Of a stretch of DNA of 57,352 nt, positions 4,910 through 28,373 are shown in pieces. Positions within the stretch are counted from its first letter, which is position 1. Each line of letters opens with the position of its first letter. Origin of the DNA: Parcubacteria group bacterium Gr01-1014_29 (lineage in GTDB: Bacteria; Patescibacteriota; Minisyncoccia; Ryanbacterales; 2-02-FULL-48-12); the NCBI GenBank assembly GCA_007376195.1, contig VMFT01000003.1, positions 1 to 57,352 of the forward strand, read 5' to 3'. Position numbers and translations under genes: made by a program. The notes under the pieces are model-generated. The model was not told where the DNA came from and ran no database searches. It saw nothing but the letters and a program-made list of their open reading frames with translations.

Positions 4910-4975
4910 ACTGTTTCCATGTCGTCAATGCGTATACATTCGGAAGTCCGACTTCCGAATGTGTTAGCGACAAAG

Positions 4976-5009
4976 CGGCCGCAGGAGCTGGCGCTGGAGG
5001 ATTGGGCTT
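4976..5009 (+). repeat. Direct repeat (right copy); relic of an RsmA C-terminus (KRPQELALEDWASVAK-stop)
   Basis: Same 34 nt as 4141-4174 with 3 mismatches. It is followed by a stop codon and palindrome D copy 2. Confidence 0.85.
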
Positions 5010-5026
5010 CTGTAGCCAAATAATAA

Positions 5027-5059
5027 CAACTGACTAGACACCGAGTGTCTAGTCAGTTG
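5027..5059. repeat. Palindrome family D copy 2
   Basis: CAACTGACTAGACAC-CGA-GTGTCTAGTCAGTTG. Confidence 0.9.
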
Positions 5060-5145
5060 AATAGAAAATGATTATGAGCCTATCTCAAAAATAGTTCTTT
5101 TTATGACAGCTCGCACGCTGACGCCAAGCGAGCCGATAGGGGCTC

Positions 5146-6819
5146 ATGTTGTGTTATACAAGACTGGGAGTTTTTTTTCTTTTTCACTACCTGTACAATA
5201 CCTATGTGCTTTTTATATTTATATTTGTATCTGGTTTTTTCGCATACTTAGCGTATCCGCCAGCAAAACTTTCTGTTGCCGCTTTTTTCTTTCTCATTCC
5301 TTTGTTTTTATTCCTTCGATGCAAACTTGGAAAGAGAGAAACGTTCCTTGGAGGATTTGCGGCTGGAACGTTCTTTAGCGGTTTTGCTCTCCGCTGGCTA
5401 TTCTTTATGATTCCTGTTGACTGGCTTGGCCTTCCAGAAAGCATGACTGTTGTATGGCTCATGTTCTTTTGGGGAAGTATTGTGTGTATAATTGGCTGCT
5501 TCTGGGGACTATTTGCCATCTTCGCTCAAAAACACATCCAAAACATTCATTGGCATTCCTTTATCATAATTCCGTCGCTCTGGGTTCTTGCAGAATATCT
5601 TTGGACGCTAACCATAACTCTTTTTTGGAACGGTGGTGGTAGTATTCTTGGCGTTCATTGGCAGTACGGCGCAGTTGCAGATATGCTCGCCGCAATTCCA
5701 ATAATACTCCCTATTACGCGCCTTGGTGGACCATTTTTTGGGAGCTTTTTTGTCGTTTTTATAAACCTTACCCTCTTTCTTGCGCTGTGCACAATTCCAT
5801 CAATTTCACCGAACACCTCAAAAAAAACAGTTCGTCTTCTTGCTATAGCGCTTATTGCTATCATAACACTGTTGATTAGCGCTTACGCGCCATTTGTTTT
5901 TCAAAAAGAGTCGTCTACTCCGCTTCGTGTAGCGCTTGTACAAACATCTATACCGCCGTCACCATTTGGGAAAACACTCATGGACTCTACCACTTGGGAA
6001 CACTATCACACCGCAATACGAAACGCGGCCGCCGACAAGCCAGATGTTATTGTGCTTCCCGAAACAAGAGGCTTTTTTCACAAAGAGCCATTGGTGGCGC
6101 CATCTATTGCCAGCTCTCTTGGCGCACTTGCAGAGCATTCGCTGCTTATTATAGATTCGGGATTTGCTTCTGTTAACGGAGCTGCGCGCTTACAAACCTT
6201 TTATGTAGATGCCCGCGAAGGACCCGTAGCTGTATATTATAAAAACCTTCTGGTCCCCATCGGAGAACATCTGCCTACCATTATAAAACTGGTTGCCGCA
6301 ATCTTTCCTGAATCAACTGCTCCGCTCAACATGCTAGATACTGCTACGGGGAGAGAGCCGGCAAAACCCGCGCCTCACAGTGTTTCATGGAATGGCGTTT
6401 CATTTGGCACATTGGCCTGTTCCGGCATTTTTTCATCCATACTCTACCGAAATCTTGTCCGTGAGGGCGCGAACATCCTTATCAACAGCGCAAGTCATGC
6501 TGTATTTAGACAAAACAAACAATTATCAGCCCAAATAGAAGCAAAAGGCGCCGTGCAAGCGGCATCTCTCATGCGTCCGTTTCTGCAAACAGCAAACGGG
6601 GGGGCCTTATTTGTTATTGCAAAAGATGGCAGAAAAATAGTGTACAAAGAACCGATATCATCCGGATCTTTTTCTTACACTAGTATCGAAATCTCGCCCT
6701 CGTATATATCCACGCCTTTTAAGTGGTTTGGTAATTGGATTGTGTGGGCGAGCGCACTCATATATGGCGGTTATTTGTTATCCACACAAAAGCAACTCAT
6801 GAGAACGCGGGAATCATGA
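5146..6819 (+). CDS. lnt: Apolipoprotein N-acyltransferase-like protein (polytopic N-terminus + CN-hydrolase domain)
   Basis: About 7 N-terminal TM helices are followed by a nitrilase-superfamily domain. Its elements are VALVQTSIPP, DVIVLPET (Glu), YYKNLLVPIGEHLP (Lys, Lnt-like Y.K..LVPFGE) and FGTLACSGIF (Cys). Exact start uncertain. Confidence 0.7.
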   Translation: MLCYTRLGVFFLFHYLYNTYVLFIFIFVSGFFAYLAYPPAKLSVAAFFFLIPLFLFLRCKLGKRETFLGGFAAGTFFSGFALRWLFFMIPVDWLGLPESMTVVWLMFFWGSIVCIIGCFWGLFAIFAQKHIQNIHWHSFIIIPSLWVLAEYLWTLTITLFWNGGGSILGVHWQYGAVADMLAAIPIILPITRLGGPFFGSFFVVFINLTLFLALCTIPSISPNTSKKTVRLLAIALIAIITLLISAYAPFVFQKESSTPLRVALVQTSIPPSPFGKTLMDSTTWEHYHTAIRNAAADKPDVIVLPETRGFFHKEPLVAPSIASSLGALAEHSLLIIDSGFASVNGAARLQTFYVDAREGPVAVYYKNLLVPIGEHLPTIIKLVAAIFPESTAPLNMLDTATGREPAKPAPHSVSWNGVSFGTLACSGIFSSILYRNLVREGANILINSASHAVFRQNKQLSAQIEAKGAVQAASLMRPFLQTANGGALFVIAKDGRKIVYKEPISSGSFSYTSIEISPSYISTPFKWFGNWIVWASALIYGGYLLSTQKQLMRTRES

Positions 6820-6857: not shown

Positions 6858-7832
6858 TTGCGGTACCTTCCCAGTAAAAAATTTTTAAGCGGTTTTTTGG
6901 CGATAGTAACAATCGCTAGTTTGTGGTTTTTGTATTCCCGCGGAATTAATGAAAATACGTCTCCCGCGCTTTCGCGTACTCCTGAAGAGGATGCCCGTCG
7001 CAAACAACTCGAAAGCATTACCAAGGACTCTGATAATGACGGCTTGCGGGACTGGGAAGAGGTGTTATGGAAAACCGACCCCGCAAACCCTGACACAGAC
7101 GCAGACGGGACAAAAGACGGCGATGAAACACTGATAAATCGCGACCCATTGCTTGCAGGACCTACTGATGTGTTACAACCCGCCCCCACCGCAACATCCT
7201 CTCCCGAAACCGCAACGACCAAGTTTTTTGACTCTATTACGCGAGAACTGGCAGAACGCTATGTCACGGGAACACTTTCCTCTGATACGAGTGATGTTCA
7301 AGAGTCGGCTGCGGCATATATTGCCACGGCGACTCTTGGGGAAGTTGACCTCTATACTATTGAAGATCTGCGCATTATGCAAAACCCGACGGATAAAGAA
7401 ATTAAGCAATATGTTTTGGACGCAAGCGATGCCATAAAAGAGGTCTTTGCCGCCACATTTCAAAATCAAGTTCTCGTTCTTGCTTTTGTGGACGAGGATG
7501 CAAAAAAACGGGATGAAACGCTGTGGCCTATTATTTATGCCTACGACGACGCTGAAAACGCATTGAAAGAAAAAAATGTACCACAACAATATGCCGCAGA
7601 CCATCTTTTGCTGATGAACGCCGTAAAGAAAGGAAAAGAATCTATTATTGCAATGCGGAGAATTGACATTGACCCCGTCCTTGCACTTGTTGGCATGAAT
7701 CAGTTTGCCGTAGCTACACGACAACTAGTAACCGCCATTCAAAACACCCAAACAACGCTTTCACGAAATGGTATAGCGTTCTCTGGTGACGAGCTTGCAA
7801 CGCTTATGAATAATGTGCGAATCAATCAGTAA
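6858..7832 (+). CDS. Membrane-anchored hypothetical protein with acidic Ca-binding-like DxDxDG motifs (first gene of T4SS-like locus)
   Basis: N-terminal TM FLSGFLAIVTIASLWFLY; DSDNDGLRDWEE and NPDTDADGTKDGDE resemble thrombospondin type 3-like repeats. Confidence 0.55.
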   Translation: MRYLPSKKFLSGFLAIVTIASLWFLYSRGINENTSPALSRTPEEDARRKQLESITKDSDNDGLRDWEEVLWKTDPANPDTDADGTKDGDETLINRDPLLAGPTDVLQPAPTATSSPETATTKFFDSITRELAERYVTGTLSSDTSDVQESAAAYIATATLGEVDLYTIEDLRIMQNPTDKEIKQYVLDASDAIKEVFAATFQNQVLVLAFVDEDAKKRDETLWPIIYAYDDAENALKEKNVPQQYAADHLLLMNAVKKGKESIIAMRRIDIDPVLALVGMNQFAVATRQLVTAIQNTQTTLSRNGIAFSGDELATLMNNVRINQ

Positions 7833-9151
7833 TGACTGCCTTTCACAAAAAAATAGCGGCTGTAGTTCTCATGTTCTTCATACTATGCGCATCGTCATAT
7901 GCGCCGTGGAGCGTTCCGCGCGCACAGGCACTCGCATCTGGATCGATTGTGATAGATATAGAACAATATATAAAGGAATACATTCTTGATATTTTGGCAA
8001 AAGCTTTTCTTAAAAGACTCGCGCGGCAAATGGTTAATGAAACAAAAGAATGGCTTCGATCGGGGGACGCGTTCCGCGGCGGGGAACCCCTTTTTATAAC
8101 AAACTTCAATCAATACCTCTTTGACGCCGCTGATGTCGCGGCAAACGACTTCCTTGCCGAATTGTTTGGGGCAAAAACGTGGAACGCGCTCTGCAGACCA
8201 TTTCGCCTGCCGGTAGGCTTGGGCTTAAGCCAGAGCTACGGGCGTGGCTTCGGGAGTTTTAGGTATAAAGCGCGCTGCAGTATAACGGATATCGTGGGCA
8301 ACTTGGAGAATTTTTACTACAATTTCCAAAATGGCGGCTGGCAAGCTTGGGTTGCCAGCAGCCGGTACGAAAACAACATCTTTGGCCTGCTTACGATTAC
8401 GCGGGAGGAATCGCGTGAGCGGGAGCGTCTTGCCGCAAGAGAAAATAGGTATGATTTCGAGACGGGTTCCGGCTTTATCGCAAGTCAAATTTGCGTAGAC
8501 AGCATAACTATTGAAATAGAAAGCGACGTGACAAACAAGGTTGAATCAACCAAAAAAATCTGCAACAGAACCCTTAAAGAAACAATCGGATCTGTGGTGA
8601 AATCAAACCTAGATAGCGAGTTTGCGCGGGATTGGCTGGGACTTGAAATCGCAGATGAATTTCAGGAAATTATTTTTGCGGCGATAGACGGTCTACTCTC
8701 CATGGCAATTCAAGGACCCGGCGGGTTGTACAGAAAGCGTCCTCATTTTAACGCGACCGAGAGCAGACCCGTATACAAACCGTTCAGCAAAAACCCTACT
8801 TCATGGCGTTGTGCGGTTGACCACGGCGGGGGGGGAGCGAGCGCAAGTGGCGGCGGAACTAACCCGGATGGAAGCACCACGGGCGGATCTGCAAGCGTTA
8901 ATATCAGAATCGTCGGTTTCGACGATTGTAAAGCCGGGCCAAGCGGTCCTTTGCCCTACGACATACCACCCGACCCATCTATTGATTCTCCCGGTGGATC
9001 ATTTACCCAATGCAACGACGGCATAGACAACGACGGCGATAGTCTCATTGATCTTGCCGATTCGGATTGCACAAATGCTTCGGATCCAACCGAGGGTGAC
9101 GAACCCCCACCCCCACCCCCACCTACCCCACCTACGCCGCCTGGTCCATAA
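7832..9151 (+). CDS. Secreted hypothetical protein, Cys/Asp-rich C-terminal module and poly-Pro tail
   Basis: Signal-like N-terminus; CNDGIDNDGDSLIDLADSDC followed by EPPPPPPPTPPTPPGP. The start overlaps the stop of the preceding gene (ATGA). Confidence 0.55.
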   Translation: MTAFHKKIAAVVLMFFILCASSYAPWSVPRAQALASGSIVIDIEQYIKEYILDILAKAFLKRLARQMVNETKEWLRSGDAFRGGEPLFITNFNQYLFDAADVAANDFLAELFGAKTWNALCRPFRLPVGLGLSQSYGRGFGSFRYKARCSITDIVGNLENFYYNFQNGGWQAWVASSRYENNIFGLLTITREESRERERLAARENRYDFETGSGFIASQICVDSITIEIESDVTNKVESTKKICNRTLKETIGSVVKSNLDSEFARDWLGLEIADEFQEIIFAAIDGLLSMAIQGPGGLYRKRPHFNATESRPVYKPFSKNPTSWRCAVDHGGGGASASGGGTNPDGSTTGGSASVNIRIVGFDDCKAGPSGPLPYDIPPDPSIDSPGGSFTQCNDGIDNDGDSLIDLADSDCTNASDPTEGDEPPPPPPPTPPTPPGP

Positions 9152-9163
9152 AAACAAACGAGA

Positions 9164-11413
9164 ATGCATAAACTTCTTATTTTAATCAGACAACATTTCC
9201 GAAACCCACTGCTTTTTCTGGCAGTGTTGGCTGTTGTGTTTGTTGCGGCGTTTTCTCCGATCTTTTCACAAAATGTTGACGCGCAGCCACCCCCAACACC
9301 GTCACCAAACACGACGTTTGCCTGCAACACTGCTACTGGATGTAGTACGAATAGGTTTGATACAAGCACCTGTGACAATCAGTGTTTATCAGATGAAACA
9401 TGTATACCATCAAACCAGTGTACAAGTGTCACCAATCCAACAAAGGAAGCGCTTGATGCTGCTGCGAGCGGTGTTGTAACCTGGGCAGTCGAAAAAGTCC
9501 TTGAAGGTATTGTCGAAATCCTGAAATTCATTAACTCCATGCTCGTTAAGCTTGTGGGTGTGTTTGCGCAATTGCTTGACGCGGCAATTGCTCTTTCACT
9601 AGCGGGTTTGGGCGGCATAGAGGCAATAACCATCGGCTGGACTATCACGCGCGATATTGCCAACATCTTCTTTATATTTATTCTTCTTATCATTGCCATC
9701 GCGACCATTTTGCGGCTTGAGCAATACGGCGCAAAACAGCTTTTGCCAAAACTTATCATTATTGCGCTCCTCATTAACTTCAGCTTAGTTATTGCCTTTG
9801 CTGTTGTGGATGCATCTAACGTTTTGGCGCTTGCGTTCATTGGAGAAATTTCTCCTGTGTCAGACAAAATAGCGACAGTTCTTCAAATCAGTAAAATAAA
9901 CACCAAAACTGAACCGCAAGCAGAACACACTGAAATAGACTGGCAATCTGTTACGTCAACAGGTTGGCCCGCAGGAATGGGAATCATCAACCAACCATTT
10001 ACCCTTGATGCTACAATCATAGCGAACGCACCTGTTCAAAACGTATTTAGCGAACAATCCACAGAATTCTTTTGGCAAGCGACAATTCTTATTCTGCTAC
10101 TCACACTTATATTCGTATTTATATCGCTTAGTGTGATGCTGTTAATTCGCAGTGTCGCCTTGATTATTATTTTTGTGCTCGCACCTCTTGGGTTTCTTGC
10201 CGCTATTTTGCCACAAACCCGCGGATATAGCACTCAATGGTGGCAAAAATTGTTTCATTGGGCGTTTTTCTTCCCGGCATCGGCTTTTATGATATACCTT
10301 GCCTTGCAATATGGCGCGCAGATGACACAAATATTCGGTAGCGGGACAGGAAGCCACGTTATAAACACGGGGGTATTATTCAATTACTTTGTCGTTGTGG
10401 CACTCCTCATCGGCTCGCTCATTGTGGCACGCCAAATGGGCATTGCGGGGGCGGCGGCGGCCATAGGCATCGGCGCGGGGCTTGCCCGCAGAGCACGAGG
10501 GTATGCGGGCAAAATGGGCCGCGGGGCCGCGTATTACGGGTATCGCGGGGTAACAGCCCTTCCACGAGCAGGCGCACGAGCGGCCGGCAGGGGAATTGGC
10601 GATTGGGCTGGACGGAAACTTGAAGGTACGGCAGGGACAATACCGATTCTTCGCGGGGGACTTTTGCGTATATCTGAAGCCCGTGAGAAAGCTCTGGCTG
10701 AGGAAATGAAGCGTATGGGCAATCTTTCGGCGCCAGCGCTTGCCAATTTCCAAGGGGGCCTTACGGGAATGAGCTATGAAGCAGGCATACGGACATTTGC
10801 CAAGTTGAGACCCGAAGATCAGCGCCGGTATGCGGACACTATGGGCAAAGACAAGTTTAACAAGTTCGCCGAGGTGGTAGGGCAGCAGCTTGGTGAGCCG
10901 GGCAAGAAACTCGCCGCCAAGGCAACGGGGGACGTGCACGAGGCAATGCGCATTTTGCACCGCAAGCAGTTTGGGGATATGGCGCATGAGCCTGCCGAGG
11001 GCGAGGCCGGGTATGACGCATACCAGCAACAGGCGCATGATTACCTTTCCGGTCTTACAACCAAGGAAATCGGCATGTTGAGTGTCAATACCGTACGGAC
11101 CAGTGATGCGCTCCGCGAATATATATTCAGAAATTCTGAAAACATGAAAGAAATGCTCACCAAACGAGAACACGTTCAAGCGTTTAGTGAGAACATTAAT
11201 GACCATTTGAACAAAAATATAACCCTCATGACTTTAGCCGGTGTCTCACGTAATGATCAAATTGCAAACGAAATAAAAGCAAAAGGCGGCCCCATTACGC
11301 TTGAGACTGCGTTCCGAAGCGGTATCGGGGTTAATGTAGTATTAAACCCAAGCAAAGTTCCCATCGGCACAAAACGCGGTATTGTAACAACCGTAACCGC
11401 GGAAGGAGAATAG
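9164..11413 (+). CDS. VirB6/TrbL-like polytopic membrane protein of T4SS-like locus
   Basis: Signal peptide, Cys-rich extracellular N-domain, then at least 6 hydrophobic helices and an Arg/Gly/Ala-rich cytoplasmic tail. This architecture and its position beside a VirB4 gene are typical of VirB6/TrbL/PrgH analogues. No sequence search was possible. Confidence 0.55.
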   Translation: MHKLLILIRQHFRNPLLFLAVLAVVFVAAFSPIFSQNVDAQPPPTPSPNTTFACNTATGCSTNRFDTSTCDNQCLSDETCIPSNQCTSVTNPTKEALDAAASGVVTWAVEKVLEGIVEILKFINSMLVKLVGVFAQLLDAAIALSLAGLGGIEAITIGWTITRDIANIFFIFILLIIAIATILRLEQYGAKQLLPKLIIIALLINFSLVIAFAVVDASNVLALAFIGEISPVSDKIATVLQISKINTKTEPQAEHTEIDWQSVTSTGWPAGMGIINQPFTLDATIIANAPVQNVFSEQSTEFFWQATILILLLTLIFVFISLSVMLLIRSVALIIIFVLAPLGFLAAILPQTRGYSTQWWQKLFHWAFFFPASAFMIYLALQYGAQMTQIFGSGTGSHVINTGVLFNYFVVVALLIGSLIVARQMGIAGAAAAIGIGAGLARRARGYAGKMGRGAAYYGYRGVTALPRAGARAAGRGIGDWAGRKLEGTAGTIPILRGGLLRISEAREKALAEEMKRMGNLSAPALANFQGGLTGMSYEAGIRTFAKLRPEDQRRYADTMGKDKFNKFAEVVGQQLGEPGKKLAAKATGDVHEAMRILHRKQFGDMAHEPAEGEAGYDAYQQQAHDYLSGLTTKEIGMLSVNTVRTSDALREYIFRNSENMKEMLTKREHVQAFSENINDHLNKNITLMTLAGVSRNDQIANEIKAKGGPITLETAFRSGIGVNVVLNPSKVPIGTKRGIVTTVTAEGE

Positions 11414-11417
11414 ATAT

Positions 11418-11508
11418 GACGCACCTTTCAAGAAAAATATTCTCCGATGGCCTTGAAATAACAGAAAATTGTCGGCCATATAGAACATTTTTTCCTGAAA
11501 GGTGCGTC
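11418..11508. repeat. 91 nt hairpin repeat family B, copy 1
   Basis: It is the reverse complement of 43318-43408 with 6 mismatches by eye, 4 of which are compensatory pairs in the terminal stem. Confidence 0.85.
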
Positions 11509-11538
11509 AAAGGAGTATGTAACTTAAATAACTAACCC

Positions 11539-12645
11539 ATGGACGACACAACAAACAAACAACCAAATGAGATATTCGACCGCCTTGAAAAACTCCCTCC
11601 GGAGTTAAAGGACGTTATGTTTTCAACCGTTACGGCCGAAAAGATGTTTGATATCGGCAAGCGGCACGGCCTTCTGGTGGACAAACTGGGCGACATGGCG
11701 CACGAAACCGGGCTTTTGATGCTTGGCGTAACACACCCTGATGAATTTATCGGCAACCTTGCTTCCCGACTTGAAGTAAACACACAAAAAGCAAACGCGA
11801 TAGCCGACGACATAAACCGCGAAATCTTTGCTCCCGTACGCGAACAGTTACGCGCAGTGTTTGGGGGAACTGCTGGTCAGGGAGAAACACCAACTAATAA
11901 AATCCCTCCCGGCCTCCCTTTTCCAAAGGGAGGAGAGAAATCAATTCCCCTTGAGAAATTAACTCCCCCTTTGGAAAAGGGGGTTATGGGGGATTTGCAA
12001 GGTACTAGCACCAAACCTGAAACAACTTTAGAAGACCTTGAGGCCGAGCTGGAGCACGCTCTTGCCGGACAAGGAGGTGGACAACCATTGAGTGTGGTTA
12101 AAAAACCAGCCAATCTAGGTTACAAAGGCGCTGATCCCTATCGCGAACAAGTTGAGGAGCATATGCCAAATGTACGAGGCGCACCCTATGTGCCGAGCAA
12201 AGAACAAGTAGTAAGTAGTACGTATCAAGGGAAAGAAGAGCCCAAGCCGATCAAAGAAATATCAATAGCAACACCGACACCAAAGTCGGTCGAGGAGCCG
12301 TCCGTGTTTTCGCCTCTATCGCCAAAACCCGCAGAGTCTGCAACAAAAGAACACGACACTCAAAAGGCATCAGGCTTCAAATTTCAAAATTCAACCTCCA
12401 GCAAAAACGATGAAGATGTATTAAAAGAAATCACAGGTGACACAAAAAACGGGTCGCTCCAAGCATTTCGCGGATTTAATATGAATAATAACCGATCGGT
12501 TGAGAACCCGCCGCGCTATGGATTTTCGAAACTGCCTCCGTACAGGGAAAATCCTACTGCAAAACCAACACCGGCAGAGCCAGTGGGAATGCCACAACCC
12601 ATTACTAAAAACCAGAACGATTCATACAGGGAAAAAATTGAGTAG
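11539..12645 (+). CDS. Hypothetical low-complexity protein (T4SS-like locus) containing a translated family A repeat
   Basis: ORF of 368 aa. Residues KIPPGLPFPKGGEKSIPLEKLTPPLEKGVMGDL are encoded by repeat copy 11899-11996. The C-terminal half is Pro/Lys/Ser rich. Confidence 0.5.
   Translation: MDDTTNKQPNEIFDRLEKLPPELKDVMFSTVTAEKMFDIGKRHGLLVDKLGDMAHETGLLMLGVTHPDEFIGNLASRLEVNTQKANAIADDINREIFAPVREQLRAVFGGTAGQGETPTNKIPPGLPFPKGGEKSIPLEKLTPPLEKGVMGDLQGTSTKPETTLEDLEAELEHALAGQGGGQPLSVVKKPANLGYKGADPYREQVEEHMPNVRGAPYVPSKEQVVSSTYQGKEEPKPIKEISIATPTPKSVEEPSVFSPLSPKPAESATKEHDTQKASGFKFQNSTSSKNDEDVLKEITGDTKNGSLQAFRGFNMNNNRSVENPPRYGFSKLPPYRENPTAKPTPAEPVGMPQPITKNQNDSYREKIE
11899..11996. repeat. Palindromic repeat family A, copy 2 (long variant, translated in frame)
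   Basis: AAAATCCCTCCCGGCCTCCCTTTTCCAAAGGGAGGA..(28 nt)..CTCCCCCTTTGGAAAAGGGGGTTATGGGGGATTT. Confidence 0.85.
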
Positions 12646-12852
12646 GTATGCAGCCCCACATCTTTTTTGCAAAACGAATCTATGTATGCTGAAACTTTAA
12701 AATTTACAACCAAATCATGGCAAAGCGCTTCGCCCATTAAGGGTTGCGCTATTCGCGCACGCGCTTTGCGAAGTATGCCATGGCAAAAAATAAGCGGGGC
12801 TGTCATTTTCGCAGCTATATTTTATTCGCTACGCTCTAAAATATAGGCGAAA

Positions 12853-13223
12853 ATGCAGCAGTTTCAAGTGCCGCAATTTATTGAGGTAGAAGACAAAATT
12901 TTTGGGCCGCTTACGACAAAGCAGTTCTTTTATCTTTTGGGCGGGGGGGGAACTCCGCGGCGTATATGTTGAAGCCGCGCTTGTATTTATGGCAAAAATC
13001 CAAAGAACGAAAGGAGGAGGCCCAAGAAGAAGACAAAAAAATCCGCACGGGGCTTATTATCCCGAAAGTTACGCAAAGCAAATTAAACGACTTGGCCTGG
13101 TCGCTTGATATTATGCAGAATGTCAGAAAAAAAGACGAGCGCGCGCCAACCACGGACACTTCGGGCGATTACAAAAACATCATCACAAGCGCGCGTGTAA
13201 GCGGAGGTGAAAACAGAAATTAA
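12853..13223 (+). pseudogene. PrgI/VirB3-like T4SS gene, frameshifted at a G8 run and lacking the usual TM segment
   Basis: Frame 1 gives MQQFQVPQFIEVEDKIFGPLTTKQFFYLLGGGG, then a stop at 12970. Frame 3 continues with PRLYLWQK...IPKVTQSKLNDLAWSLDI, the motifs I recall from PrgI-family proteins. The frames switch at GGGGGGGG 12943-12950. Confidence 0.55.
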
Positions 13224-13331
13224 ATCAGACTGCCAACTGAAAAAAGCAGTTGTGTTGTGTAAATGTGCCGAGCCAAGCTATCCACAATTCCGGTTACACC
13301 GGAATGTGTAGAGCTCGGCTAGTCACATTTT

Positions 13332-14009
13332 ATGGCAAAACCACTTCCCGCACAACAACTTGTTGAAGTTCAGGAAATACGCGACGGTGTGTTGCTATTG
13401 AAAGATGGGTCGCTTCGCGTTGTTTTGATTGCATCGTCCATCAACTTCGCGCTGAAATCGCAAGAAGAACAAGACGCTATAATTTTTCAATACCAAAACT
13501 ACCTTAATTCGCTTGATTTTTCCGTTGAGGCATTTGTGCAATCGCGCCATCTTAACATCGAGCCGTACCTTGAGGTGTTGCGGGAACGCCTCGGACGCGA
13601 ATTTAACGAGCTTATGAAAATACAGATTACCGAATACATAGACTTCGTAAAATCATTTGTGGAAAGCTCTCATATTATGGCGAAGGGCTTTTATGTGGTA
13701 GTGCCATTTACACCCCTGCGTCTGCCCCGGCAGGCAAGCATTCAAAGATCGGTCCTTAAGTTCCTGCCCGACTTGTCCGGCCGCACAAAAAAACAGGCAA
13801 AAGAAATGCGTGAACATGGTGTTACCCAGGAACGGTTTGAAGAATACAAAACCCAGTTATTTCAGCGCGTGGAAGTAACGCGCCAAGGCCTCGGACGCCT
13901 CGGGGTGCGCATTGTGCCGCTTAACACCGAAGAGCTGATAGAACTCTTTTACAGTTTGTACAATCCGGGGGAAATTGAAAAAGGGAAGATACCGGAAGTG
14001 GCAACATAA
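13332..14009 (+). CDS. VirB4/TrsE-type N-terminal domain protein (separate ORF)
   Basis: LVEVQEIRDGVLLLKDGSLRVVLIASSINFALKSQEEQDAIIFQYQNYLNSLDF resembles the N-terminal region of Gram-positive VirB4-like ATPases. It is in the same reading frame as the next ORF, 90 nt away. Confidence 0.6.
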   Translation: MAKPLPAQQLVEVQEIRDGVLLLKDGSLRVVLIASSINFALKSQEEQDAIIFQYQNYLNSLDFSVEAFVQSRHLNIEPYLEVLRERLGREFNELMKIQITEYIDFVKSFVESSHIMAKGFYVVVPFTPLRLPRQASIQRSVLKFLPDLSGRTKKQAKEMREHGVTQERFEEYKTQLFQRVEVTRQGLGRLGVRIVPLNTEELIELFYSLYNPGEIEKGKIPEVAT

Positions 14010-14016
14010 TAGCAAA

Positions 14017-14098
14017 TTAGGCTTTAGGCTCTAGGCTCTAGGTATTAGGAAATACACTTGAGACCTGAAGCCTAGCGCCTAAAAACTAGCGCCTAGCA
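14017..14098. repeat. Heptad-periodic inverted array (TTAGGCT x5 / CCTAGCG-type x5) filling the gap between the two VirB4 ORFs
   Basis: TTAGGCT TTAGGCT CTAGGCT CTAGGTA TTAGGAA - 12 nt - CCTGAAG CCTAGCG CCTAAAA ACTAGCG CCTAGCA, then CA ATG. Confidence 0.85.
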
Positions 14099-14099
14099 C

Positions 14100-15911
14100 A
14101 TGGCTTTCTTATCAAAACTATTTGGTAAAAAACAAGAAGATGGAGAAGGTATCCTTCCGATTTTTCCGCAAGATATTTACTCACACGGCGTTTTAGAACT
14201 GGAAGATGCCATCGCGCCCGCAGCGCTCCAGGTAAACCCATCAAACCTGCGCCTCGGAGAAAAATACACTCGTACACTGTATGTATACGCCTATCCGCGG
14301 TTTTTGGCGACAAGCTGGTTTGCGCCTATCATCAATCTCGATAAAGTGTTTGATATCTCAATTTATATTCATCCGGTTGACACAGCCCTAATTCTGCGCG
14401 ATCTTCGCAAGAAAGTTGCCGAGGTACAATCGCAGATTTCCATACGTGAAGAAAAAGGCCTCGTGCGCGATCCAGTGCTTGATACTGCTTACCAGGATCT
14501 TGAGGCTCTGCGCGACAAACTCCAACAGGCGCAGGAAAAACTCTTTAGCATTGGGCTGTACATCACGCTCTACGGAGACACAGAAAAAGAGCTTACAGAA
14601 ATCGAGACAGAAGTACGTTCTATTCTTGAAGCAAAACTAATCTACGCGAAGCCCGCGCTCTTCCAGCAGCGGGAAGGATTTACCAGCACCCTGCCGCTTC
14701 TGCTTGATAAGCTGGAAGTGCATACCTACATGAACTCGTCCCCGCTTTCAAGTGTGTTTCCGTTTGTATCATTTGACCTCACCTCAAACCGCGGCATACT
14801 CTATGGCATTAATCGCCACAACAACAGCCTTATTTTATTCGACCGCTTTACGCTCGAAAACTACAACACGGTTGTTTTCGCAAAAGCGGGCGCGGGCAAG
14901 TCGTATATGACAAAACTCGAAATCCTGCGTTCGCTTATGTTTGATACTGATGTAATTGTAATAGATCCGGAACGGGAATATGAGTATCTGGCCGAAACCG
15001 TTGGCGGCAGATTCTTTAATATTTCCATCAACTCACACCATCATTTAAATCCCTTTGATCTTCCTTTGCCGCACGAGGATGAGTCGCCCACGGACGTGCT
15101 GCGCTCAAATATCATCAATCTTATTGGCCTCTTCCGGTTGATACTCGGCGGACTCACGCCCGAAGAAGATTCCATCATGGACCGTGCCATTACCGAAGCG
15201 TACGCCGCAAAAGACATTACAGCAGAGGCAGATTTTACGCATATCTCCCCCCCCCTGCTTTCAGACCTGGAGCTGGTGCTCGCGAACATGCAGGGTGGCG
15301 AGACACTGGCATTGCGCCTTAGAAAATACACCGAAGGCACGTGGTCGGGGTTTCTGAACCAACCGACAAATATAAACATCGACAAGCACATGGTGGTATT
15401 CTCGCTGCGCGATATGGAAGAGGAACTTCGTCCCATTGGCATGTATATTGTTACGCATTATATCTGGAATGTTGTGCGGTCTGAACTCAAAAAGCGCATC
15501 CTTATAGTTGATGAGGCCTGGTGGCTGATGAAATCGGAAGATGGCGCATCGTTTCTTTTTGGTCTTACCAAACGCGCCCGCAAATATTTCTTAGGTGTTA
15601 CCACTATTACGCAAGATATCGGCGACTTTATGAACTCGCCCTACGGCAAGCCGATTATCACCAACTCGTCTATTCAGGTACTGTTGAAGCAATCTCCCGC
15701 CACAATTGATATAATGAAAGATGTGTTTAACCTCACCGACGAAGAAAAGTTTCTGCTTTTGGAGTCCGACGTGGGGGAGGGAATTTTCTTCGCGGGGTTG
15801 AAACACGTGGCCATAAAAGTTATCGCCTCCTACACCGAAGACCAGATTATTACATCCGACCCCGAGCAATTATTGGCGATTAAACGGGCGAAAGAAGAAT
15901 TTACACAGTAA
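14100..15911 (+). CDS. virB4: VirB4/TraC-type T4SS ATPase (CagE_TrbE_VirB-like domain + AAA_10-type ATPase)
   Basis: Walker A FAKAGAGKSYMTK, Walker B ILIVDEAWWLM, and YTRTLYVYAYPRFL plus DISIYIHPVD motifs typical of VirB4 middle domains. Confidence 0.85.
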   Translation: MAFLSKLFGKKQEDGEGILPIFPQDIYSHGVLELEDAIAPAALQVNPSNLRLGEKYTRTLYVYAYPRFLATSWFAPIINLDKVFDISIYIHPVDTALILRDLRKKVAEVQSQISIREEKGLVRDPVLDTAYQDLEALRDKLQQAQEKLFSIGLYITLYGDTEKELTEIETEVRSILEAKLIYAKPALFQQREGFTSTLPLLLDKLEVHTYMNSSPLSSVFPFVSFDLTSNRGILYGINRHNNSLILFDRFTLENYNTVVFAKAGAGKSYMTKLEILRSLMFDTDVIVIDPEREYEYLAETVGGRFFNISINSHHHLNPFDLPLPHEDESPTDVLRSNIINLIGLFRLILGGLTPEEDSIMDRAITEAYAAKDITAEADFTHISPPLLSDLELVLANMQGGETLALRLRKYTEGTWSGFLNQPTNINIDKHMVVFSLRDMEEELRPIGMYIVTHYIWNVVRSELKKRILIVDEAWWLMKSEDGASFLFGLTKRARKYFLGVTTITQDIGDFMNSPYGKPIITNSSIQVLLKQSPATIDIMKDVFNLTDEEKFLLLESDVGEGIFFAGLKHVAIKVIASYTEDQIITSDPEQLLAIKRAKEEFTQ

Positions 15912-16029
15912 TACTTTGAATTACGAAACTCCTAAAAATCCCCCTTCATCCCCCTTTTCCAAAGGGGGACATGCGCTCCTCCCTTTGGAAAAGGGAGGTT
16001 GGGAGGGATTTTGTAATTCAAAGAGTAAT
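15908..16029. mobile_element. MITE-like composite: 21 nt terminal inverted repeats enclosing a family A palindrome (copy 3, 15934-16012)
   Basis: Left TIR is GTAATACTTTGAATTACGAAA; its TAA is the virB4 stop. Right TIR is TTTTGTAATTCAAAGAGTAAT, ending 4 nt before the next ATG. The same TIR type bounds 43287-43452. Confidence 0.7.
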
Positions 16030-16033
16030 AAGT

Positions 16034-16564
16034 ATGCCTGAAGAAACAACCGAACAACAATACCAAGCCGAACTGTTGCGCGAGCGACAGCGTGAGCAGC
16101 AGATGAATATTGAAGAGGCGGAACGCGAAATGGAGCTTGCGGAAACGGAGGATCTTTCCCAAACCCAAGCCGCTGGACAAGCAAAAGCGCCTAGGAACAC
16201 ATTTCCTCTATCAGCCATTGCGGTAGGTCTTTGGTTGTTTCCCGCCGCAGCTTTGGATATGTTTGAGTTTTTTGGGCAGGTATTGGCCGCGATTCCGTTT
16301 ATCGGGTTGCCGCTCGCTGGGGCAAGCAGTATTGTTGGGGCAATTTTTAGTGGTATAATGGTTTTGATAGTCGGGTTCTGGCTTCTTATGAAAGGTGTAA
16401 CTCCTTTCTCACCGAGCGGCATCCGGATATTTCTTGTTTTGGGGGCAACCGCGTTTGGCAATGCCATTGTAAACTGGCTGCCGGCGTGGAGTGGATTCTT
16501 TTTGTGGCTTTTCTTTATGGCCCACGCGCGAGAAGCGCTTTTCTTAAATAAATTTAAAAAATGA
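16034..16564 (+). CDS. Hypothetical 4-TM membrane protein (T4SS-like locus)
   Basis: Acidic N-terminus followed by four hydrophobic helices. The start is moved to the ATG at 16034 because the upstream part of the ORF is repeat-derived. Confidence 0.55.
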   Translation: MPEETTEQQYQAELLRERQREQQMNIEEAEREMELAETEDLSQTQAAGQAKAPRNTFPLSAIAVGLWLFPAAALDMFEFFGQVLAAIPFIGLPLAGASSIVGAIFSGIMVLIVGFWLLMKGVTPFSPSGIRIFLVLGATAFGNAIVNWLPAWSGFFLWLFFMAHAREALFLNKFKK

Positions 16565-17583
16565 ATACCACACACAAAACTGGAAACAAAACACACTCGG
16601 TTGTTTTTACTATTTTGTTACACATCCTCGTTGTTATATTTTTTCTTGCCGGACTGCGCGTTTACGGACAAGTCAATGAACCGAAAATAGAATTTGTTTT
16701 GAATCCTACCTATCCGCATGCTTATGAATTCACCAGTGTCACGATACGTTCCTTTAGTTTTGATACCCAAAGCGCGCTATTTTCATGGTCAATTAATGGA
16801 AAACCTGCCAGTACTGGAAGAGGAGTAAAAAGTGCCAGTTTCACCACAGGCCCTCTAGGATCAAAAACCGCCGTTTCTGTAATTATTGTCCCTTTCGAAG
16901 GTATGAAGATAAAAAAAACCATTGACGTATATGCCTCAGACCTTGATATTCTCTGGACAGCATCATCATATACACCACCATTTTATAGAGGGAAATCATT
17001 GCCTACCCGAGGGTCTACCGTTACATTCGTCGCCTCGCCATTCTTTGAAAGCGCCCAAACAGGAAAAGAAACAGATTTCTTGTTTGAATGGAATGTTGAC
17101 GGAAAAGAAATGCGCCAACAATCCGGATACGGCGCTCGTGTGTTTTCTCTCAATATCGGAAGAAACTCAAACACAGAATATCGTATTCAAGCGCGAGTTA
17201 CCAACCCCGCAACAAACGCAACACAAACAAAAAGCTTTTCTTTACCTATATATGATCCCGCATTACTGTTTTACGAACTCCACCCACTGCAGGGTCCGCT
17301 CACCGGACGCGCCATTTCCGACCGACGTGCCATCGCGCCGGATAGTGAAATACAAGTGCTTGCGGTACCGTACTACGCATCACAACCCCCAGCAGCGCTT
17401 GATTTTGGGTGGAAGGTAGAAAACACTGATATCGCGCGGGGAGAAAAAGGAGAGCGCGCCGATGTGTTAACGTATCACGCCGAGCAGGGAAGCAGGGGGC
17501 AACAAATTGTTTCCCTTAGCATTTTGAATCCATTCAATATATTAGAACGCATACAAGAATCATTTCGCATATATGTGGAATAA
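16561..17583 (+). CDS. Membrane-anchored hypothetical protein with three internal beta-rich repeats
   Basis: N-terminal TM. The signature recurs three times: ALFSWSINGKPASTGRG / FLFEWNVDGKEMRQQSG / LDFGWKVENTDIARGEKG. There is a 4 nt overlap with the previous gene. Confidence 0.55.
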   Translation: MNTTHKTGNKTHSVVFTILLHILVVIFFLAGLRVYGQVNEPKIEFVLNPTYPHAYEFTSVTIRSFSFDTQSALFSWSINGKPASTGRGVKSASFTTGPLGSKTAVSVIIVPFEGMKIKKTIDVYASDLDILWTASSYTPPFYRGKSLPTRGSTVTFVASPFFESAQTGKETDFLFEWNVDGKEMRQQSGYGARVFSLNIGRNSNTEYRIQARVTNPATNATQTKSFSLPIYDPALLFYELHPLQGPLTGRAISDRRAIAPDSEIQVLAVPYYASQPPAALDFGWKVENTDIARGEKGERADVLTYHAEQGSRGQQIVSLSILNPFNILERIQESFRIYVE

Positions 17584-18097
17584 AAAACATTTTGCGCTGG
17601 CGCTGTTGCTCCTTATTGCTCTATGTGCGTTTGGAACGGCGGATGCCGCGCGTTACAACCTTCTTGCGCCGCTGCCGGGAGGAGACGCGTCGGTTGATGC
17701 GACATCGGGAGGATTTCAAACCTACATGGCACAGCTTTTCTGGTTTATTTTGTGGGGAGCAATCATACTCGCGCTTGTTATGTTTGTCATCGGGGGGGTG
17801 GAATATGTGGGGTCGGCCGGAAACACGAGCCTGCTTCAAGACGCGAAAGGACGCATCACAAACGCGCTGTTAGGCCTGGTTCTCGCGCTTGCCGCTTGGC
17901 TTATCTTATACACCATAAATCCTGATTTGGTAATTTTTGAACTACCCATTGAGCCGATTACACTGCCAATCAGTGGCAATCAAAAGGCTACCACTGACGG
18001 AGAACCGCCTCCAATACCACCGCCGCTACCACCGCCACCTAATACAGGAGGCCCCCAGCCACCACCACCTCCGCCTCCACCACCATTAGGTAATTAA
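17573..18097 (+). CDS. VirB2/TrbC-like T4SS pilin with Pro-rich C-terminal tail
   Basis: Signal peptide ending TADA. Two hydrophobic helices (LFWFILWGAIILALVMFVIGGVEYV; ALLGLVLALAAWLILYTINP) match the CPR-type T4SS pilin layout as I recall it. The tail is PPPIPPPLPPPPNTGGPQPPPPPPPPP. Confidence 0.65.
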   Translation: MWNKKHFALALLLLIALCAFGTADAARYNLLAPLPGGDASVDATSGGFQTYMAQLFWFILWGAIILALVMFVIGGVEYVGSAGNTSLLQDAKGRITNALLGLVLALAAWLILYTINPDLVIFELPIEPITLPISGNQKATTDGEPPPIPPPLPPPPNTGGPQPPPPPPPPPLGN

Positions 18098-18126
18098 ACC
18101 CAATCAGTACATAACACAACCCATAT

Positions 18127-19323
18127 ATGACCATTCGAGGCAGAGAAATTAAACGTTCGCATATTCTCATCGGCAGCGCCGTTCTTGTTGGTATTGCCAT
18201 TATATTGTTCTTTTTATTACGCGGAGGAGATACAACAGGTGGGAGTGCCGGAGAAGATGATGGTTCGTTCTTTGGGTTTCTCTTCGGCGGCTCTTCTGTG
18301 TCACCAAAACCTCTCGATAATACTGCCACCGGAGACGACACCGAACAACCGGAGCAATACTTGTTTCGGATAACAAACGAACCTGTGGCAGGCGCTACCA
18401 TCTCGTCCGACGGCACATCGTTGCGATATTTCAAAAAAACAACCGGTCATTTGTTTGAAAACTCGTTCACCGGAGACAAGGAACAACGTATCTCCAATAT
18501 AACTACTTTAGCTATTCTTAACGCTCAGTGGACCCCCTCAAAAGAATACGCAATCATCAGTTATTACACGAATGGCGCCGTGCGCCGCTTTTACTCCCAC
18601 TACAGCGGAACGTCCACCATAACATCCGCAGTTCTCCCAAATGATATTATTGACATCACCACATCAAAAACAGATGAAAAAATAGCCTATCTCGTCTCTT
18701 CCGGCGCCGAGACTATGTTGCTTACCGCGAATCCTGATAATACCGGCATCAAGAATGTTTTTTCAACACCCTTTCCTGACTTTGAGCTTTCCTGGCCGGT
18801 GACAAACCGCATCGGCCTCAAAACACGAAGCTCCGCATACGCGCCGAGTGTTCTCTATACTCTCAACCCTTCCACCAAACAGCTCACGCGCGTACTCGAC
18901 GAAAAAGAAGGTCTTGATGTATTGTGGTCGCCCGATGGCACTGGTTTTCTCTCTATGAAAACAAGCCGCGAAGGCACGAATGTGGCGCTTCGTGTGGTAT
19001 CCTTACAAGACAACACGGCAGTAGATTTTCCTTTTGTAACGCTTCCGGAAAAATGTGTCTGGGCGCCATCAAAAGAGCGGGTGCTCTATTGCGCTATTCC
19101 CCAACAAATTCCAAGCGGCACACATGTACCCGATGAGTGGTGGCAGGGAAGCGTGTCATTTGATGACGCCCTCTGGCGCATATATGTTGACACGGGTATA
19201 CGCCAACAACTTCTGTCGGCTTACCAGCTTGACGCAATCAACCTTTTTACAGACAAAGAAGAATCGTTTCTTTTCTTCTCAAACAAAAAAGACGGGCTCT
19301 TGTGGAGCCTCCGCCTTCGTTAG
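18127..19323 (+). CDS. Membrane-anchored hypothetical protein, TolB/WD40-like beta-propeller
   Basis: N-terminal TM, then repeated beta-strand-rich segments including VLWSPDGTGFLS. It is the last gene of the co-directional locus. Confidence 0.5.
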   Translation: MTIRGREIKRSHILIGSAVLVGIAIILFFLLRGGDTTGGSAGEDDGSFFGFLFGGSSVSPKPLDNTATGDDTEQPEQYLFRITNEPVAGATISSDGTSLRYFKKTTGHLFENSFTGDKEQRISNITTLAILNAQWTPSKEYAIISYYTNGAVRRFYSHYSGTSTITSAVLPNDIIDITTSKTDEKIAYLVSSGAETMLLTANPDNTGIKNVFSTPFPDFELSWPVTNRIGLKTRSSAYAPSVLYTLNPSTKQLTRVLDEKEGLDVLWSPDGTGFLSMKTSREGTNVALRVVSLQDNTAVDFPFVTLPEKCVWAPSKERVLYCAIPQQIPSGTHVPDEWWQGSVSFDDALWRIYVDTGIRQQLLSAYQLDAINLFTDKEESFLFFSNKKDGLLWSLRLR

Positions 19324-19417
19324 GCATTAGGCGCTAGGCTGTAGGCACTAGGAGTTAGAATTTAGAGAAAGAAAATTTTTTCTAAAGCCTAATGCCTAGT
19401 TTTCCTAGAGCCTAAAC
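19321..19417. repeat. Heptad-periodic inverted array (TAGGCNN x7 / CCTANNN x4) between convergent genes
   Basis: TAGGCAT TAGGCGC TAGGCTG TAGGCAC TAGGAGT TAGAATT TAGAGAA ... CCTAATG CCTAGTT .. CCTAGAG CCTAAAC. The first TAG is the stop of 18127..19323, and a CTA in the last units is the stop of jag. Confidence 0.85.
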
Positions 19418-19885
19418 AACTGGTTTTATCACCACCCTGCGATTTTCGCCTTCGCCAATGCTTTCTGTTGCCACATCAGGGTCGCCTGTCAGTGTTATGT
19501 GAACAATACGCCGCTCATACCCGCTCATCGGCTGCATAACAACTTCTTTCTTGAAATACCGCACGCGCTGGGCGCTCATGCGCGCACGCTCGCGGAGGTC
19601 CTCAACACACTTGCGCTGGTAGTCATTTACATCAATAACAAATGGTGAAAAGCCGCTTGTGTTTTTTTTCTCTATAATGCGCTTCAAAATAGTTTGAAGC
19701 GCGTATAAATGTTTGCCATTCTCCCCAATAAGCAGGTTGCTATCAGGTGTTCGTATGTGAAGACACGGCGTCTCTAATATCTCCGTTTCCTCAATAGACG
19801 CCTCAATACACATGAGTTGGAGTATCTTTTTTAGGGTAGTACACGCATCATTGAATGGTGTTTGTTGTTGTATTGGTTGGTTCAT
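19412..19885 (-). CDS. jag: Jag-like KH/R3H RNA-binding protein
   Basis: LIGENGKHLYALQTIL (KH-like) and GYERRIVHITL (R3H). It sits downstream of yidC, as in the conserved rnpA-yidC-jag cluster. Confidence 0.8.
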   Translation of the reverse strand: MNQPIQQQTPFNDACTTLKKILQLMCIEASIEETEILETPCLHIRTPDSNLLIGENGKHLYALQTILKRIIEKKNTSGFSPFVIDVNDYQRKCVEDLRERARMSAQRVRYFKKEVVMQPMSGYERRIVHITLTGDPDVATESIGEGENRRVVIKPVV

Positions 19886-20624
19886 ATGCCAATCTGACGT
19901 TCTCCGCTTTTTTACGCACTATCATTTCGTGAATGATAGCAAACAAATTCATTGTTGTCCAATACAAAGAAACGGCAGCGGAGAACTGAAGTCCGATGAA
20001 AAATATCAGTACCGGCATAACATAAACCATTTGCGTTGTCATTATGCGCGAAATATCCTGCGTTCCACCACTTTTTTCTGTGTTTTTCAAGGACGGAAGA
20101 GAAATTGGTACCGCGAGTTTCATTTGTAAAAACTGCGTAAGGGCGGCGGCAACCGCAAGCACAATACTTACTTCCATAAGATTTATAACACCAAGAAAAG
20201 TGGTGTGAAGGGAATCCGGCATGTGGATAAACGAGTACAGTTGCGCGCCGATATCAGCTGGCCCCACAAGAAACACCCGATAGAGAGCAATAAGAATAGG
20301 AAGCTGTACCAGAAGCATAAGACAGCCAGAAAGCGGATTTACACCGTGTTCTTTGTAAAGCATCATTATGCGGCGCGCCTGCTCTTCTTTGTTGTCTTTG
20401 TGATCATCCCGAATTTTCGCGATATGAGGCTCAAGAACGCGCATTTTTATCTGCGCTTTTATGGAATGATGCGTAAAAGGAAACAGCACGAGACGCACCA
20501 GTATTGTCAGAATAATGACCGCAAATCCGAGATCATGAAAGGGAAGAATGTTTGTAAGAAAAACAAGAGCGTTCAGGAGAGGACGAAAAAATATTTCATC
20601 GAAAATTGTTATAAAGAATGTCAT
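19848..20624 (-). CDS. yidC: Membrane protein insertase YidC (short form)
   Basis: Five-TM YidC/Oxa1 layout, position between yidD/rnpA and jag, and basic C-terminal tail. Confidence 0.88.
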   Translation of the reverse strand: MTFFITIFDEIFFRPLLNALVFLTNILPFHDLGFAVIILTILVRLVLFPFTHHSIKAQIKMRVLEPHIAKIRDDHKDNKEEQARRIMMLYKEHGVNPLSGCLMLLVQLPILIALYRVFLVGPADIGAQLYSFIHMPDSLHTTFLGVINLMEVSIVLAVAAALTQFLQMKLAVPISLPSLKNTEKSGGTQDISRIMTTQMVYVMPVLIFFIGLQFSAAVSLYWTTMNLFAIIHEMIVRKKAENVRLAYEPTNTTTNTIQ

Positions 20625-28338: not shown

Positions 28339-28373
28339 CCAACTGACTAGACACTCGGTGTCTAGTCACTTGG
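28339..28373. repeat. Palindrome family D copy 3, immediately downstream of ruvC
   Basis: CCAACTGACTAGACAC-TCG-GTGTCTAGTCACTTGG. The loop is inverted relative to copies 1 and 2, so orientation relative to the upstream gene is the same. Confidence 0.9.

Follow-up and report, generated by a model that had tools for sequence, protein, structure and literature searches.

What kind of machine is encoded by a gene cluster that resembles a type IV secretion system (T4SS), lies beside dnaA and carries no genes for conjugative transfer? The question is raised by positions 6858–19323 of contig VMFT01000003.1 from Parcubacteria group bacterium Gr01-1014_29, analysed here within a 57-kb stretch (positions 1–57,352 of the contig, hereafter the window). 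A previous reading, made from the letters without database searches (the sequence-only reading), had recognised VirB2-, VirB3-, VirB4- and VirB6-type parts in this locus and had considered its composition to be essentially undescribed. Profile comparisons support homologues of VirB2, VirB3 (PrgI, broken in this assembly), VirB4 and VirB6 and, judged by its gene content and order, the locus is the T4SS already published as a core trait of the ultra-small Patescibacteria, hence real but known. We consider it very probable that the best overall explanation is an origin-proximal, relaxase-free Patescibacteria T4SS serving contact-dependent exchange with a host cell and not conjugation.

The cluster consists of eleven open reading frames (ORFs) on the + strand, numbered here o1 to o11 in their order, all of which were confirmed at the coordinates first reported, as were their short or overlapping junctions. 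In the left part of the cluster, a 1-nt overlap at 7832 is followed by gaps of 12, 125, ~207/320, 108, 90 and 59 nt; in the right part, overlaps of 4 nt at 16561 and 11 nt at 17573 are followed by a 29-nt gap. The spacing is looser only around 12645–13332, the other intergenic gaps measuring 12–125 nt, and strong hairpin elements lie inside the two longest gaps of the cluster. From the predicted topologies, VirB4, TrsD and o4 would be cytoplasmic, VirB6, PrgI and o8 would reside in the membrane, and o1, o2, o9, the pilin and o11 would be anchored or exported.

The 603-amino-acid (aa) VirB4 ATPase (14100–15911, +) is of the monoderm type, similar to that of the MPF-FATA class of mating-pair formation (MPF) systems: it matches the NCBIfam model NF045971 (conju_CD1110) with 363 bits, for an equivalog cutoff of 325, over profile positions 185–733, and the Pfam family P-loop_TraG with an E-value of 1e-23. 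In its translation one can read both motifs highlighted by the sequence-only reading, GAGKSY (Walker A) and IVDEAWW (Walker B). CedB is found among the weaker VirB4 matches (8.9e-10). The preceding ORF (13332–14009, +; 225 aa), which the sequence-only reading had left unnamed, encodes a TrsD-type stand-alone homologue of the VirB4 N-terminal domain. Its match to the NCBIfam TrsD model (TrsD/TraD family) is weak when taken alone (6.7e-5, 22.8 bits), and it also aligns with positions 2–62 of the CD1110 VirB4 profile. Among 32 orthologues, all 32 matched VirB4 models and 29 the TrsD model. Because the match of the 603-aa protein begins only at profile position 185, whereas the TrsD ORF covers positions 2–62, the N-terminal part absent from VirB4 corresponds, by profile coverage, to the TrsD protein.

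The 749-aa product of o3 (9164–11413, +) is a VirB6/TrbL-like polytopic membrane protein of the extended type, with a cysteine-rich N-terminal exo-segment, about 6–8 hydrophobic segments and a hydrophilic C-terminal domain of ~300 aa. The TrbL family is matched by 11 of 40 orthologues (best E-value 3.5e-10), and a profile built from the orthologues aligns over the transmembrane (TM) domain with TrwI/VirB6 of R388, known from a cryo-electron microscopy structure (7o3v_F, E=0.004), in agreement with the assignment first proposed from the translation. The 174-aa protein encoded by o10 (17573–18097, +) matches the Pfam family T4SS_pilin (PF18895) with 30.5 bits, above the gathering score of 26.6, which bears out its description as a VirB2/TrbC-like pilin. 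It combines a signal peptide with two hydrophobic helices (hydrophobic segments at residues 7–25, 55–73 and 95–113) and a proline-rich C-terminal tail, whose poly-Pro stretch is readable in the translation. The pilin gene is found in 59 of the related loci examined below; the length of the tail varies among them, the proteins ranging from 106 to 408 aa.

For comparison with relatives we used the best 80 of 328 VirB4 relatives in GTDB species representative genomes, 68–87% identical to the VirB4 of the window and viewed as the locus ± 10 kb. All 80 loci come from metagenome-assembled genomes belonging to the CPR (candidate phyla radiation) and labelled Parcubacteria/Paceibacteria, Giovannoni-, Kaiser-, Sung-, Campbell-, Terry-, Niyogi- and Tagabacteria. 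They present a recurring order, UvrD-KsgA-o1-o2-VirB6-o4-PrgI-TrsD-VirB4-(o8)-o9-pilin-o11-Jag-YidC-RnpA-DnaA-DnaN-PBP (penicillin-binding protein), from which the window departs only by an AbiEii fragment and a Lnt-like gene between ksgA and o1. The trsD gene is present in 79 of the 80 loci (median identity 52%). In the same loci the median identity is 70% for VirB4, 51% for DnaA, 46% for UvrD, 43% for YidC and 35% for DnaN, the relative conservation of VirB4 being inflated because the loci were picked by VirB4 similarity.

In the window, uvrD (1478–3385) and ksgA (3397–4191) lie upstream of the cluster; downstream are jag/khpB (19412–19885, −), yidC (19848–20624, −), a small ORF at the position expected for rnpA between yidC and dnaA, then dnaA (21468–22826), dnaN (23069–24169) and, beyond it, a class A PBP. 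The cluster is thus bracketed by ksgA and jag-yidC-rnpA-dnaA-dnaN, and dnaA lies 2.1 kb past its last gene, much as the sequence-only reading had placed it among core genes. The cumulative GC skew reaches its minimum at 20–24 kb, consistent with a replication origin beside dnaA. Among the scanned window ORFs of at least 110 aa we found no relaxase, VirD4/TcpA, VirB11, VirB8/9/10 or lytic transglycosylase, as had been anticipated; Pfam and NCBIfam scans of the cluster proteins gave no match to VirB7–VirB10, VirB11, VirB5 or VirB1. No integrase was detected among the scanned window ORFs, and the sole tRNA lies 32 kb away. Since gene order and core flanks recur in ~80 genomes and no transfer genes occur in the window, the cluster is, as far as its genomic setting tells, a vertically inherited core machine and not a mobile element, and the earlier view that it does not look conjugative is upheld.

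Such systems have been described recently. An essential T4SS located next to dnaA was reported in the Saccharibacterium Southlakia epibionticum, in which transposon sequencing (Tn-seq) showed that it is required for epibiotic growth; it resembles Gram-positive conjugative systems, its pilins are essential, it has no recognisable coupling or relaxase proteins, and the tables of that study list a core order of VirB6-like, PrgI, TrsD-like and VirB4 (Wang et al., 2023, Cell, PMC10633639). A phylum-wide survey found VirB4, TrsD, PrgI/VirB3, VirB6 and VirB2-like pilins in Patescibacteria T4SSs, relaxases being almost always absent, located these systems near dnaA, dnaN, rnpA, ksgA and rpmH in Paceibacteria and other classes, and proposed a non-conjugative role, possibly in import (Quinonero-Coronel et al., 2025, Microb Genom, PMC12102498). 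A 2025 FEMS review counts the Patescibacteria systems as newcomers to the T4SS superfamily (PMC12857230). The same system having been published in these three works, the notion of an essentially undescribed composition does not hold.

One core gene of the window, prgI/virB3 (12853–13223, +), is disrupted. The orthologue found in 71 of the 80 loci encodes a protein of 134–195 aa with two TM helices that starts MQQFQVPQFIEVEDKIFGPLT; Pfam PrgI (PF12666) is matched by 36 of 36 orthologues (E<=0.01), the protein of the related locus L001 reaching 45.2 bits for a gathering score of 27. In the window, the N-terminal 33 codons are found at 12853–12951, with a stop at 12970–12972, and the C-terminal ~64 codons run on in another frame, within the 85-aa ORF 12966–13223. 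A DNA alignment shows that exactly 133 nt of the L001 gene have no counterpart here, so that both membrane helices are lost and the frame is shifted. The PrgI/VirB3-like N-terminus pointed out by the sequence-only reading was therefore attributed to the right family, although what it had before it was a truncated and frameshifted gene. The 33 retained codons are identical in protein to those of L001 despite many synonymous differences in the DNA, which suggests selection on prgI until very recently, and a run of G residues (12941–12950) adjoins the breakpoint. The break may be either a sequence error or a defective copy in the population; the synonymous-only flanks, the intact state of the other genes and the homopolymer at the breakpoint favour an artefact, or else an event of very recent date. 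No second assembly of the same genome was found by an exact-protein look-up of VirB4 or an exact 42-mer scan of JGI metagenomes.

The junction between prgI and trsD shows unusual features in this lineage. About 190 nt (13139–13331) separate the conserved end of prgI from the start of trsD and are absent from L001, where both genes abut; through this segment the prgI remnant gains 28 unrelated codons. It includes a strong hairpin (13261–13331, +; dG −42 kcal/mol, z −5.8) directly upstream of the trsD start codon, present in a single copy in the window and not found in L001. At the position of this junction the contig of L002, the closest relative, runs out in a tandem (GAGTTAC)n repeat.

Six ORFs of the cluster had been left without a nameable family. 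Profiles resolve two of them, o9 and o11, and reveal thrombospondin type 3 (TSP3) repeats and a helical bundle in o1, whereas o2, o4 and o8 stay unassigned; the earlier descriptions of a calcium-binding-like anchored protein, a protein with three beta-rich repeats and a TM-anchored propeller thus found their counterparts. The o1 protein (6858–7832, +; 324 aa) is anchored at its N-terminus and carries putative calcium-binding TSP3 repeats at residues ~55–100 (Pfam TSP3_bac, 25.3 bits for a gathering score of 25), followed by a C-terminal helical bundle. Its profile matches the calcium-binding region of Bap (2e-8), and its family of 356 members includes proteins titled 'thrombospondin type 3 repeat-containing protein [Patescibacteria]'. 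The gene occupies the same position in 36 loci. The database version of the protein (P0096) is 303 aa long, its start falling within the membrane anchor; a TTG start at 6858 is supported because orthologues conserve an N-terminal LPSKK motif. The AlphaFold2 (AF2) model of o1 is helical (pLDDT 82). The helical domain was considered as a VirB5 analogue and this was rejected, a Foldseek search against the PDB returning only generic four-helix bundles (E>=0.4) and no VirB5.

The o9 protein (16561–17583, +; 340 aa) is predicted to be N-terminally anchored or exported and contains three tandem immunoglobulin (Ig)-like domains of the PKD/BiPBP_C-like kind, with a conserved Trp in each repeat. Its profile matches the Ig domains of T4 Hoc (2.5e-4); of 51 orthologues, 11 match BiPBP_C and several contain PKD-like domains, and the gene is present in 72 loci. 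A relationship of o9 to NTF2-like repeat proteins of the VirB8/TcpC kind was discarded, the profile and Pfam matches being Ig/PKD-like instead. The o11 protein (18127–19323, +; 398 aa) combines an N-terminal TM anchor with a TolB-like PD40 beta-propeller; its profile matches TolB structures (4e-10 to 6e-9), PD40 is detected in 14 of 53 orthologues and the gene is found in 61 loci.

The other three accessory proteins are those without an assignment. That encoded by o2 (7832–9151, +; 439 aa) is predicted to be secreted, with a hydrophobic N-terminus, conserved cysteines, an acidic double-disulfide motif (weak match to NCBIfam acid_disulf_rpt, 31.6 bits for a cutoff of 41) and a poly-Pro tail. 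It is kept in 41 loci, and the relatives often bear C-terminal CHB_HEX_C/Fn3_assoc domains of carbohydrate-binding type. No PDB profile match was obtained for o2, and its AF2 model (pLDDT 51), for which homologue searches gave 23 sequences, is unusable. The predicted cytoplasmic protein o4 (11539–12645, +; 368 aa) has a conserved N-terminal domain of ~110 aa and a disordered, proline-rich tail with DPYRE motifs; it is conserved in 54 loci, in its N-terminal domain only, and showed no match in Pfam or the PDB and no TM segment. Acidic at its N-terminus, the small o8 product (15971–16564, +; 197 aa) is a polytopic membrane protein with hydrophobic segments at residues 77–139; its true start is probably Met22 (16034), as its orthologues suggest. 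About half of the related loci have an o8-like, fast-diverging ORF between their virB4 and o9 genes. This protein was also tried as a VirB3/PrgI homologue, and PrgI was matched by none of 37 orthologues, TraL by a single weak match and the PDB by nothing; the assignment was rejected, the real PrgI being the broken gene upstream of trsD.

The roles of these families in characterised T4SSs, together with the Saccharibacterium Tn-seq data, suggest how such a machine may work. Within the cytoplasmic membrane VirB6 would provide a platform on which VirB4/TrsD docks via PrgI/VirB3, and this platform would drive the building of a wall-crossing pilus or conduit of the VirB2-like kind. Those accessory proteins that are exported (three-Ig, TolB-like propeller, calcium-binding TSP3 and cysteine-rich) would form or anchor an extracellular, wall-spanning part in contact with the host. 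The whole would then serve contact-dependent exchange of macromolecules between the episymbiont and its host cell, either by export of effectors or by import of host material. It is also conceivable, although we would put more weight on the contrary, that the six accessory proteins are true structural subunits which, with the single long-tailed pilin, form a Paceibacteria-specific extracellular module replacing VirB1/5/8/9/10 for host-cell docking and import. If so, this would be a structurally distinct T4SS architecture not yet characterised in any organism.

Several points weigh against reading the locus as such an exchange machine. The T4SS experiments were carried out in the Saccharibacterium S. 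epibionticum and in no member of Paceibacteria, and PrgI, essential in that species, is internally deleted and frameshifted here. The VirB6 of the window scores 25.4 bits on Pfam TrbL, 0.5 bit under the gathering score of 25.9. No analogue of VirB1, VirB5 or VirB8 was demonstrated in the cluster, including by the o9 profile and the o1 model. The accessory genes are assigned to the machine solely from conserved synteny and predicted export, and about half of the relatives lack o8. Finally, the negative result for a type IV coupling protein (T4CP) covers the 57-kb window and not the rest of the genome, and the 80 loci compared were ranked by VirB4 similarity.

Among the competing explanations, descent from a conjugative element (integrative or plasmid), inserted near the origin and since deprived of relaxase and coupling protein, would account for the resemblance of VirB4, PrgI and TrsD to families of Gram-positive conjugative elements, and for the AbiEii toxin-antitoxin fragment and repeat elements at the left edge of the cluster. 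This origin is extremely improbable, being already contradicted by synteny: about 80 species-level genomes have the same order and the same core flanks, the conservation of VirB4 equals or exceeds that of DnaA (in loci selected by VirB4), the window has no integrase, relaxase or tRNA boundary, and the AbiEii/Lnt segment lies outside the conserved block as an insertion specific to the window. The broken prgI raises another doubt, namely that the 133-nt deletion is real and that the T4SS is inactive or decaying in this organism, which would then have no working machine. The loss of both TM helices with the shift of frame, the extra ~190 nt and hairpin without counterpart in L001, and the tandem repeat in which the L002 contig breaks at this very place all speak for it; yet the ten remaining genes are all intact, with lengths that are normal beside those of L001, the 33 N-terminal codons have kept their protein sequence through synonymous changes, and next to the breakpoint is a G homopolymer, the kind of place where assembly or sequencing errors typically arise, while no other assembly of the genome was found for comparison. 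On balance we regard decay as somewhat unlikely.

Two further proposals accept a working apparatus and differ over its task. According to one, it would import DNA or nucleotides, working inwards like ComB of Helicobacter pylori or the archaeal Ced system, drawing in DNA or further macromolecules of the host and so feeding a cell unable to make nucleotides. This hypothesis, favoured in the phylum-wide survey (PMC12102498), agrees with the lack of a relaxase or T4CP near the locus in the window scans, with the presence of CedB among the weaker VirB4 matches and with a lifestyle that implies a need for host-derived building blocks. However, nothing in the cluster was recognised as a DNA-binding protein or nuclease, S. 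epibionticum takes up DNA via ComEC, the authors of its T4SS study leaning towards protein export or another role for the T4SS (PMC10633639), and the direction of transport is not written in the genes; we therefore hold a dedicated nucleic-acid importer to be unlikely. According to the other, the cluster would serve to attach the cell to its host by a VirB2-type pilus, and no substrate would be transferred. The conserved pilin with its variable proline-rich tail, the adhesin-like accessory domains (Ig, TSP3 and, in relatives, CHB_HEX_C) and the absence of a T4CP from the window would suit an adhesion organelle. Against this, the genome also encodes the type IV pilus ATPase PilB, type IV pili being the established adhesion system in Saccharibacteria (PMC10633639), and VirB4 and VirB6 are under very strong constraint, beyond the known needs of a pilus alone, which makes a purely adhesive function quite improbable. 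Contact-dependent exchange with the host, without commitment to a direction, is the explanation that we retain.

Seen in this light, the window is a clean example of the Paceibacteria arrangement and leaves the published picture unchanged. To our knowledge, Patescibacteria have the only T4SS for which an essential role in the growth of the carrier bacterium has been shown. Across about 80 genomes the accessory genes are as syntenic as the VirB core, and domain calls are now available for three of them (three-Ig, TolB-like propeller, TSP3 with helical bundle), making them natural candidates for the part of the machine that spans the wall or contacts the host. What interest is left attaches to these conserved accessory genes, the transported cargo and the broken prgI of this assembly.

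Several repeated and palindromic sequences were noted in the window. A near-perfect hairpin element of ~95 nt occupies the virB6-o4 spacer (inverted repeat I1, 11419–11518) and has a second copy after holA (43308–43407); the two copies are 94% complementary and the predicted folding is strong (dG −40.6 kcal/mol, z −7.7). An Rfam scan of the whole window matched only a tRNA, so the hairpins do not belong to known RNA families. A family of palindromic repeats of ~90–110 nt, with the pattern AAAATCCCCCTT..CCCCCTTTTCCAAAGGGGGA / CTCCTCCCTTTGGAAAAGGGAGG..GGGATTTT, is found at 3641–3728, 11894–11992, 15914–16023 and 33632–33678. Two copies lie in frame within coding sequences: the ksgA copy encodes IPLNPPFSKGELLPLKKGGWEGF, in a loop that is 12–14 aa shorter in orthologues, and the o4 copy encodes KIPPGLPFPKGGEKSIPLEKLTPPLEKGVMGD in the disordered region (residues ~119–152). 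Another copy lies between virB4 and o8. These repeats recall the Rickettsia palindromic elements that insert into ORFs; the 80 related loci contained no instance of their exact pattern. Short TAGGC-type repeats (e.g., TTAGGCTTTAGGCTCTAGGCTCTAGG) are present in the trsD-virB4 spacer (14017–14091), after the last T4SS gene (19318–19358) and in an intergenic region at 46858–46895.

The window-specific insertion between ksgA and the T4SS block is made of an AbiEii segment and the Lnt-like gene (5146–6819). The former (within 4093–5065) contains an AbiEii-like toxin fragment (4188–4685, −) and a small ORF. It is flanked by identical 31-nt palindromes (4100–4130 and 5028–5058), of which a third copy lies at 28341–28371, and by a 67-nt direct repeat of the ksgA 3′ end (4113–4179 versus 4948–5014). 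Further upstream, 5.4 kb from the cluster and divergent from uvrD, a gene at 222–1469 (−) encodes a protein with LysM and peptidase M23 domains, and this neighbour is also present in the related loci L042 and L078. Because VirB1-like candidates of Patescibacteria often carry M23 and LysM domains (PMC12102498), it could be a candidate cell-wall hydrolase of the T4SS. Elsewhere in the window we noted a PilB/T2SSE-type ATPase of a type IV pilus or competence system (31862–33532, −), a 1521-aa protein with an InlB B-repeat domain (51587–56152, +), presumably a surface protein, and a YebC/TACO1-family protein of just 182 aa (28943–29491, −), in which the second Pfam domain is matched in two separate stretches, suggesting that it is internally shortened.

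How does this cluster compare with known systems? With H. pylori ComB, Bordetella Ptl and the archaeal Ced system it shares a VirB4-type ATPase (CedB in Ced) employed in a non-conjugative role; the specific homology stops at VirB4 (CedB, 8.9e-10), and the accessory sets and envelopes differ. With the MPF-T systems Agrobacterium VirB and R388 Trw it has in common VirB2-, VirB3-, VirB4- and VirB6-type parts, the VirB6 profile aligning with TrwI, whereas VirB1, VirB5, VirB7–VirB11, VirD4 and the outer-membrane core complex are missing here. A further comparison is with the MPF-FATA conjugative T4SSs (Prg/Pcf of pCF10, Trs of pGO1/pSK41 and the Clostridioides difficile conjugative transposons), which share a CD1110-family VirB4, PrgI, TrsD, a VirB6 homologue and a monoderm envelope. 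In contrast to these, no relaxase or T4CP, VirB1-type hydrolase or VirB8-like protein was found in this cluster, which has a VirB2-like pilin lacking in Gram-positive systems and is chromosomal, origin-proximal and, by its synteny, vertically inherited.

The closest counterpart is the Patescibacteria-clade T4SS represented by S. epibionticum (SEML1_0005–0019). What sets the Saccharibacterial cluster apart is its six pilins, its pair of VirB6-like proteins, its genes for lysozyme and peptidase and its NTF2-like (VirB8-like) protein. The present one has a single pilin, no lysozyme, peptidase or NTF2-like gene, a disrupted prgI and a set of its own: the three-Ig protein, the TolB-like propeller, the TSP3 protein, the cysteine-rich secreted protein, o4 and o8. 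Common to both are a monoderm-type VirB4 with a TrsD-like neighbour, an extended VirB6, a VirB2-like pilin and a gene of the PrgI/VirB3 family (here the broken copy), the order VirB6-PrgI-TrsD-VirB4, a cluster without relaxase or T4CP, and the location by dnaA and dnaN, which in Paceibacteria is also adjoined by ksgA, rnpA and rpmH.

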